This document shows, piece after piece, positions 39,591-48,074 of a stretch of DNA of 64,000 nucleotides. Source of the stretch: Octopus vulgaris. Its lineage: Eukaryota. Position numbers and translations under genes: made by a program. The DNA is taken from assembly GCA_951406725.2 (NCBI GenBank), contig OX597837.1:25916001-25980000 (forward strand), given 5' to 3'. The notes below the pieces were generated by a model that saw nothing but the letters and a program-made list of their open reading frames with translations, ran no database searches and was not told the origin of the DNA. The first letter of the stretch is position 1. The number at the start of each line of letters is the position of its first letter.

Positions 39591-40496
39591 CGCCTTGGAA
39601 CCCTGCTTGACATAAGAGTTTCTTATTTCTCTATTGTTTGAATGACTGTAAACTAAACGAGATGGCGCTAACGAGAGAAAGAGACGGAACGAAAATTAAT
39701 ATTGTTCTATCTCTAAAGAATGGACAAAGATAGCGAAAAATGAAGAGGAAAGACTGTGTTGTCTTAAATTTCCGTAATTATGAGATTTAGTTGGGGGGTG
39801 GGTCGGTGGCTTCCACAAGAGTCTGAGAAGCGAGTCTGACAGGTGGAAGTTGTTGAATAAATATTTAATATAGGAATTGATGTGCGTAATGAAGATATGG
39901 AGGTTGATGATGTGTTTTTTTGTTGTTTTTTTTTTACTTTTTCTCTTGTAAATTCGGAATCTAGGAAGATGTCTCTAGGCTATGATAAAACCATTTCAGA
40001 CCACTTCTGGTACTTAATTCCCCTGCCAAGAACTGATAAGCCATTACATCCCCCACCGCCCAGCTTGCTTGATTGTTTGTTTGTTTGATTTAGTGTTGTT
40101 GTATAGGAGACTGAAGGATGGCAAAAGGTGGGGGGGGGGGGTGAGATGGCGGGGGGGGGGGGGGGGGAGGAGGTCAGAATGTGGAGTTTGTGTGATTTCA
40201 TAACCTGGTTCTTTGAGAAATGGGAGAAAGTGACAATAGTTGGAATAAAGACATTAACAACGGTGTGGTGGTGGTGGTCGTGGTGGGGAGTGACAGTCAG
40301 CAGCAGCAACAAACCAATGCAAAGATTTGTATGTAAAAAAAATTAACAAGAGATGTTGTACTTGCGAAAGGAAAGGCAGCCAGTTGTTAAATCATGATGA
40401 TGATGATGTTGAATTATAACAAAGATCCCAAAATTTAACCCAACAGACAGAACCCCACCACACGTATTTCTGGATTATTCTAAGAGTTTTACCAAT

Positions 40497-40793
40497 ATCT
40501 ATCTATCTATCTATCTATCCGCTCAGTCGAAGTCGACTCTCGGTTACTCATTGGATCAGTGTCCTCCAGTCAGTTCTATCCTGGGCCACTTCTTTCAGAT
40601 TGGCTATGTCCATTCTGGTATCACTTCTGATGGTGTCAAGCCAGCGGGTTCTTGGTCGGACTCTTCCTCTCTTGCCACTGACCATTCCAAGCATGATGTC
40701 CTCCTCCAGGAATTTTCTCCGCATAATATGACCGAAATATGTCAATCTATGCTTAGTGATCCTAGCTTCTAGTGACATTTTCAGCCTTATTTG

Positions 40794-40838
<45 letters not shown>

Positions 40839-41040
40839 ATATGTAAATATATATGTATGTATATCTCTCTCTATCCGCTCAGTCGAAGTCGACTCTCGGT
40901 CACTCATTGGATCAGTGTCCTCCAGTCAGTTCTATCCTGGGCCGCTTCTTTCAGATTGGTTATGTCCATTCCGGTATCACTTTTGATGGTGTCAAGCCAG
41001 CGGGTTCTTGGTCGGCCTCTTCCTCTCTTGCCACTGACCA
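40497..41040 (-). pseudogene. two copies of an RTE-BovB-like LINE 3' end
   Basis: SLEARITKHRLTYFGHIMRRKFLEEDIMLGMVSGKRGRVRPRTRWLDTI...AQDRTDWR; 3' end gagtcgacttcgactgagcg then (ATAG)n; copies 40518-40790 and 40874-41040. Confidence 0.9.
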
Positions 41041-41590: not shown

Positions 41591-41640
<50 letters not shown>

Positions 41641-41733
41641 AAATATTATTAGAGACAAAACCACTATTTTGCAAAACAAACAAGGAAAGACTTAATCAAT
41701 ACATAAAATTTTAATAAATAGTCAAAAAAACCG

Positions 41734-41776
41734 CCACTACAATCGTTTCTTGTCTTGATCGACAATCTTCAGGTGG
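41734..41776 (-). ncRNA. minimal type-I hammerhead ribozyme (mirror copy)
   Basis: Minus: ccac CTGAAGA ttgtc-gatcaa-gacaa GAAA c-gatt-g TA gtgg. Confidence 0.8.
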
Positions 41777-41820
41777 ACTTCAATAAGTCAGTTTCAAATT
41801 TGAAACTGACTTATTGAAGT

Positions 41821-41863
41821 CCACCTGAAGATTGTCGATCATGACAAGAAACGATTGTAGTGG
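41821..41863 (+). ncRNA. minimal type-I hammerhead ribozyme
   Basis: ccac CTGAAGA ttgtc-gatcat-gacaa GAAA c-gatt-g TA gtgg; stem I ccac/gtgg, 5-bp stem II, GUA triplet. Confidence 0.8.
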
Positions 41864-42579
41864 CGGTTTTTTTTGACTATTTATTAAAATTTTATGTATT
41901 GATTAAGTCTTTCCTTGTTTGTTTTGCAAAATAGTGGTTTTGTCTCTAATAATATTTTATAATATTTTACTATAAAATTGGATTTAATCCTAAATCTGAT
42001 TTTTTTCCCTGTAAATTTGGATTTATTCCCTAATATTTATTATTATATATATATATATATATATATATACGTATATATATGATGGGCTTTTTAAAGTTTC
42101 CATCCACTCACAAGGCTTTGATTGGCCTGAGGGTATAGTAAAAGACACTTACCCAAGGTGCTACACAGTGGGACTGAACCAAGAACCATGTGGTTGGGAA
42201 ACCAGCTTCTTACAACACAGCTATGCCTGTGCCACAGTCTCTCTTAGTAGTCAGGACACAGTATGACTATTTTATTTCTCACTCCTTTCCACCCTCCTCA
42301 CTTTTCCATTTGTGTATCTTTCAAATTGGATTCGCCCAGAAAGATTCCCATATCATTTCAACGAAGAAATTTCTCACATTTGTGAGGGTTCATACAAACA
42401 CACACACACACACATCTCACACTTAATCACTAATCAACTGACATCTTTCCACAAATATTTATCAATATAAAATAGCACCTTCGTTAGTTTTGCAAACAAG
42501 AATTGATAGATTGGAACTAAAACATTTCTAATTAGAAAATATTTATTTATTCAGAAAATTAAAACGAAAAATAAACAAA

Positions 42580-48015: not shown

Positions 48016-48074
48016 TCTAAACTTCTTAGCGAGTTATAAACTTCATAGTTTATAACTCGCTAAGAAGGTTTAGA

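Follow-up and report, generated by a model that had tools for sequence, protein, structure and literature searches.

A hammerhead-bearing palindrome of Octopus vulgaris as a likely mirror-image copy of a spliced PLE leader

A long palindrome with a hammerhead ribozyme motif in each arm raises the question of how such a structure arises, and whether it is young or kept by its host. The window, the whole 64-kb stretch of Octopus vulgaris DNA that was analysed, holds one such structure. Its arms (41637-41798 and 41799-41961) are inverted copies that align over 162/163 bp with no spacer, giving the 325-bp palindrome centred at 41798/41799 that a preliminary description made from the sequence had reported. 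The same description had counted about one substitution, placed in the stem II loop, and one poly-T indel between the arms; these are T41842 in loop II, where the family has A, and a run of 8 T at 41867-41874 vs 7 A at 41724-41730. The other perfect palindromes of the window are TA repeats and one hairpin with 21-bp arms, so this one lies far beyond chance. The right arm continues for 82 bp past the palindrome (41962-42043), (TA)n is found at both ends of the insertion, and the two units form a head-to-head pair, with no tandem array at the locus. Read against the parent element described below, the features are:

41623-41636, no strand: left target, the end of a (TA)n microsatellite; TA microhomology blurs the arm boundary
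41637-41800, minus: inverted, tail-less arm; exon 1 (41800-41785) from +8, then exon 2 to the inner end site
41785/41784, minus: exon 1 to exon 2 junction of the left arm
41734-41776, minus: left minimal type I hammerhead with the family-type loop II; cut predicted by hammerhead rules between 41738 and 41737
41797-41800, no strand: centre, a self-complementary AATT, the 4-nt overlap common to both arms
41797-41812, plus: exon 1 remnant of the right arm, +8 to +23 of the putative transcript; the parent has a GTAAGT donor next
41813-41961, plus: right-arm exon 2, which in the parent comes after an AG acceptor lying 1.1-1.8 kb downstream of exon 1
41821-41863, plus: right minimal type I hammerhead (CUGAAGA, GAAA, GUA); loop II has a private A>T at 41842, and the cut is predicted at 41859/41860
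41962-42043, plus: PLE tail of 82 bp between two fixed end sites, present on a single arm
42044-42071, no strand: right target, (TA)n

No host gene was identified near the locus in the ORF list of 25000-60000, and the window copy is probably inert. A 190-bp direct duplication (94%) occupies window positions 40495-41040, the duplicated fragment resembling a LINE RT C-terminus on the minus strand. A second perfect inverted repeat, with 21-bp arms and a 4-nt loop, lies at 48022-48067.

Scanning both strands of the window for type I hammerheads returned exactly two matches, the outward-pointing 43-nt motifs already recognised in the preliminary description, and the minimal core is intact in them (CUGAAGA/GAAA/GUA). 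In both family variants stem III is a self-complementary 8-mer that pairs fully with itself, and two molecules are accordingly predicted to fold into the dimer form; the earlier idea of a dimer fits this, and other metazoan PLE motifs, which show weak in vitro cleavage, are similar in the accessible text of PMC4209133. The base of stem II is U-A and lacks the G10.1-C11.1 pair typical of hammerheads (PMC4209133), which may lower activity. Rfam gave no hammerhead match either at the gathering score or at E<=10; its miRNA-like matches merely reflect the hairpin and were set aside. The hammerhead monomer is no more stable than shuffled sequences (z -0.02). In the computed fold, the 325-nt palindrome transcript forms a single hairpin (-253.6 kcal/mol) within which the ribozyme motif would sit locked in duplex, in agreement with the ~160-bp duplex foreseen for a transcript of either strand.

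The structure is not confined to this locus. An exact search with a 25-mer of the ribozyme gives 1194 matches in the 2.8-Gb genome, and at no fewer than 139 loci both arms reach the centre motif, with varied centres; many further arms stand without a partner. A tail is present on exactly one arm in 123/129 distinct outward pairs (both arms in 3, neither in 2, unclear in 1). These loci were sampled in search-output order, mostly from contigs C1-C6, the first 30 having been chosen for likeness to the window; among loci picked without a full-length query the one-tail count is 98/103. (TA)4 adjoins all 117 of the tail-less ends scored and 115/120 of the tail ends scored. Outward pairs 1-15 kb apart proved to be long palindromes of the same element, some of them with an ORF. 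EN+ PLEs are described with just this form, a 5'-truncated copy in inverted orientation and a tail on one side (PMC8557442, PMC3846280, as far as their accessible text goes), and this part of the architecture is already known. The varying centre, the asymmetric ends and the existence of a PLE parent led us to reject a MITE or foldback DNA transposon. One locus (L200, G000:C5:64450985-64452430) consists of three tandem partial spliced-arm copies with the same centre, 107-109 bp apart.

Intact copies of the parent encode RT (YRDD) followed by a C-terminal GIY-YIG domain (VVY...YIG) in one ORF of 837 aa, and many near-identical copies have open frames of ~840 codons. The ORF has DKT in place of DKG (QSDKTRNLY), a CxCX5C linker (CTCRDKSNC) and, around a conserved E and N, CxxC (CYLC..NE) and CxH (CRH). 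CCHH is absent from the nuclease core by eye, and the N-terminal RWK motif reads RIKWKAF, a conservative change from the RMRWKAF of Hydra-1_Obim in the supplement of PMC8557442. A hammerhead in the pseudo-LTR and a (TA)n target are both present, as in Hydra-clade PLEs. Pfam searches of the parent ORF and its relatives found no RT or GIY-YIG match, while part of the members of the nearest Atlas clusters carry HTH_animal, GIY-YIG or RVT_1. Judged by motifs and by a by-eye alignment to that supplement, the parent matches a C-terminal-endonuclease PLE of the Hydra clade. The clade, including Hydra-1_Obim, shares with it the RT-GIY-YIG ORF, DKT, CxCX5C, CxxC, CxH, the hammerhead, (TA)n and an inverted 5'-truncated copy with a one-sided tail, at least in the accessible part of PMC8557442; compared by eye, the parent belongs to a different family from Hydra-1_Obim. 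Its unit is at least ~6.3 kb, compared with 'generally <3 kb' for the clade, and includes an Asn-rich insert and a 1.74-kb internal repeat; its tail is 82 bp against 30-40 bp in the same text.

In order, the unit comprises the ORF, a 645-bp UTR, a 550-bp segment, one to three copies of the 1.74-kb repeat, the ribozyme and finally both end sites. Where units stand in partial tandem, the next ATG follows ~280 nt downstream of the ribozyme, which is in sense orientation. An ORF antisense to the ribozyme, as L084/L085 had suggested, was rejected, since a rearrangement has affected that copy and the ORF is in sense in intact ones; the locus itself (G000:C1:166322400-166338200) is a 14.6-kb palindrome from a rearranged parent with an inverted ORF, the joint being present in both arms. 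Some 220 bp upstream of the ORF in L245, in a different repeat, is a second small hammerhead-like motif with a CUGACGA core, and text like that region flanks L040. A sister Hydra family (L246, L247; G000:C8, C5) of ~950 aa, 44% identical over the alignment and with 885 pattern matches, has a long-stem-II hammerhead, a different stem III palindrome and outward pairs too. A short spliced leader beside the ribozyme was found in 0/30 arms of this sister family, and the spliced-leader phenomenon is thus not general.

Comparison of the window with the intact parent copy L090 showed that the right arm differs at 2/231 positions. This bears out the preliminary description on the youth of the palindrome. 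Its alternative, that the palindrome is maintained, is not supported, since at least 139 loci share the design with varying centres and such a palindrome results as a by-product when the element inserts. The description had missed the tail, the parent element and the spliced origin.

The spliced origin is apparent from the 5' part of the arms. The first 14-16 bases of the window arms do not adjoin the ribozyme in the parent. They come from the repeat, after the initiator-like motif TTTCA and before GTAAGT; the remainder of each arm starts directly after the parent's AG acceptor. A GT-AG intron of 1129-1845 bp (in 6 parents) has been lost exactly. In the arms a short exon thus meets the ribozyme exon with precisely the parent intron removed, and this is the novel part of the observation. 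By exact-pattern counts, intron-free arms (634) outnumber intron-keeping ones (446). Copies of GAAAGT parents, in which the first GT is lost, are joined at a donor 4 nt downstream, and an alternative acceptor position was used at one locus. Splicing also forms a 5-bp hairpin, GACUU/AAGUC (window 41808-41821), just before stem I that is absent from the unspliced RNA and could change ribozyme folding.

The 5' limit of the copies is nearly fixed. Among arms that reach the initiator-like +1 A, 56/62 stop there and 6/62 continue into parent sequence. From these copy ends and the motif, the +1 A would be the transcription start. G precedes +1 in 33 of the 56 stopping arms, where the parent has C, by a hand count whose search pattern skips arms with C at its first place (C makes up 11% of the arm). 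This fits copying of a cap, although the partner arm can supply many of these bases and only ~4 are clearly untemplated. The arms of two spliced pairs, both in G000:C2, reach beyond +1 on the upstream side, by ~300 bp in L214 and 20-30 bp in L216, so read-through RNA is copied in spliced form as well. Contigs of four runs that are only guessed to be RNA gave no bridge from exon 1 to the ORF, which is evidence neither way. Taken together, the window palindrome is likely one of hundreds of recent mirror-image, intron-free copies of a PLE 5' leader, and PLEs likely also copy spliced mRNA. We found no report of spliced PLE leader retrocopies or of twin priming in PLEs within our incomplete coverage of the literature.

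The ribozyme appears to be uncut in the copied RNA. Family copies nearly always span the uncut site, and both arms start within 30 nt of the predicted cut at 3 loci, 1 of them exactly there, vs 139 at the leader. Ribozyme-cut RNA as a template has 1 possible locus genome-wide by pattern, plus L113, too few to call.

The two arms of a pair are closely related to each other. For contigs C1 and C2, whose two lists are both complete, the outward pairs were 22 spliced-spliced, 19 unspliced-unspliced and 0 mixed among 41, where ~20 (20.4) mixed would be expected. Variants were compared in 96 of the 129 pairs. The stem III variant agrees between partners in 88/88 pairs (44 expected) and the G/GG variant in 93/96, and the mean arm distance is 0.88 for partners vs 2.86 for non-partners, a value reached in 0/20000 permutations. 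Shared splice state and shared variants indicate that both arms usually derive from one template or one source.

We consider it probable that the window holds a recent head-to-head insertion, in (TA)n, of two intron-free Hydra-clade PLE leaders, for which both target ends were primed on one spliced sense RNA. The parent RNA would start at the initiator-like +1 and be capped and spliced. A dimer of the RT-endonuclease would cut the (TA)n target, and each target DNA end would prime reverse transcription at one or the other of two internal sites separated by 82 nt. Both cDNAs would run through the uncleaved ribozyme to the RNA 5' end, where their trimmed 3' ends would pair through a short self-complementary motif, AATT in the present case, to give a spacerless palindrome. 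The one-tail rule would be the outcome if the two start sites on one RNA were each taken up by an enzyme subunit. Unspliced read-through RNA in the same reaction would give the long (0.9-15 kb) intron-keeping palindromes able to carry the ORF. From spliced mRNA the leader alone would be copied, because priming is upstream of the ATG; such a dead-end product would explain why intron-keeping copies alone propagate.

The main rival starts from the same spliced PLE RNA and is a fold-back with later inversion of the spacer. A single cDNA would self-prime by folding back, the endonuclease would cut the hairpin copy at the inner site and so leave a one-sided tail, and later spacer inversion or central deletion would scramble which arm is longer. 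In their accessible text, PMC3846280 proposes self-priming on the basis of palindromes at the junctions and PMC8557442 proposes that endonuclease resolution produces the tail, and fold-back accounts for the identical arms and for the lack of mixed pairs. It also predicts that the tail arm should be the longer, and in short pairs this is somewhat more often the case, which counts against the best reading: the tail arm is longer in 18, the tail-less arm in 10/46, and 18 are equal (P=0.18), with 8 vs 2 at the commonest junction. In long pairs, on the other hand, the tail-less arm reaches further 5' in 12/26 (26 of 31 loci, 3 complex and 2 two-tailed ones being left out), among them L078, whose arms are 99.96% alike. 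Each arm therefore has sequence absent from its partner, and each seems to have read the RNA itself. The centres point the same way. Among 65 spliced pairs (L214 and unclassified arms left out), 19 have perfect, loopless palindrome centres, on AATT (13), TTATAA or TA; a strand folding back needs a loop, and such centres suit annealing of two cDNA ends better. At L037 and L041, moreover, the joined arms are of different isoform or source parent, and thus from different RNAs. Parts of the pairing pattern could also be mimicked by recombination between arms, which is able to invert a spacer or to convert variants. Weighing these points, we regard fold-back as unlikely, though it is the alternative to be taken most seriously.

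The short elements could instead be a SINE-like family that spreads by itself and goes back to a single DNA deletion, or a single old splice, in the parent. This would suit their high abundance and nearly fixed 5' end; second-round copying of some short copies is possible. The join, however, is exact at GT and AG and takes several forms that track the donor sequence of the parent. Furthermore, 123/128 typed spliced arms have a haplotype common to unspliced arms, and five common parent haplotypes are represented among the arms. The exon join therefore arose many times, and the haplotype table suggests nesting in several parent subfamilies. A founder of this kind is improbable.

That the host keeps the hairpin as a source of dsRNA or as a locked-ribozyme switch is more improbable still. 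The predicted fold is very stable, and in two runs G was read for A at two arm positions where 0/253 genomic arms have G. Yet these could be alleles of other individuals, not assignable to the window locus, and we do not take them as evidence of RNA editing, which would require matched DNA; the copy is almost identical to intact parents and is one of at least 139 alike. An assembly or chimeric-read artefact is hardly credible, given that two sites distinguish the arms, just one of them has the tail, the centres vary among 139 loci yet respect one 5' limit, and contig X19 of an independent run has a centre-like junction as a loose end.

For the family as a whole, the twin-primed reading of the window leads to a broader proposal, to which we incline with less assurance. 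The genome would be a fossil archive of Penelope retrotransposition, in which a dimer working from two fixed internal sites makes two copies of one capped sense RNA, spliced or not, and the cDNAs are fused. Spliced RNA would be copied at least as often as unspliced and would give leader palindromes only. Intron retention would then reflect template geometry, rather than an antisense template or avoidance of splicing.

Several known systems resemble parts of this proposal; each is compared here on the accessible text of the source. PMC8557442 stresses intron retention in PLEs and does not describe spliced copies there. Penelope of Drosophila virilis likewise has its start site in the pseudo-LTR and a leader intron ending just before the hammerhead, and makes both spliced and unspliced RNAs (PMC2377424, PMC4209133). 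Its genomic copies retain the 75-bp intron, whereas here the intron is 1.1-1.8 kb and intron-free leaders are the commoner. In vitro, Poseidon of Anolis (PAc) has two internal RT start sites, and both strands are cut and extended (PMC11167929). As proposed here, the PAc start sites bound the tail, the target is AT-rich, a dimer is predicted and the RNA template is uncleaved; PAc starts inside the ORF, in contrast to the family here, which starts upstream of it, and the inverted arm and spliced templates are not modelled in that text. The Pen elements of Adineta vaga share head-to-head arms, junction palindromes, an optional tail and Asn-rich ORF inserts. PMC3846280 favours self-priming on an antisense template for them and leaves an unspliced sense template open; unlike in that model, the copies described here require sense, spliced RNA. 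Animal non-LTR retrozymes are likewise short, non-coding, hammerhead-bearing PLE derivatives, but they are tandem units with a hammerhead in each, as opposed to a head-to-head pair of leaders (10.64898/2026.07.22.740005, PMC7229834).

Why PLEs keep introns and where their inverted ends come from are open questions (PMC8557442, PMC3846280, in their accessible parts). Intron-free leaders ending at a single 5' base, hundreds in number, are an argument that the template in vivo is a sense, spliced RNA, and the pairing statistics suggest that both target ends prime on one RNA. The intact young parent makes this model testable in a published in vitro system. Through this family the genome also acquires long perfect hairpins, which could feed dsRNA pathways.
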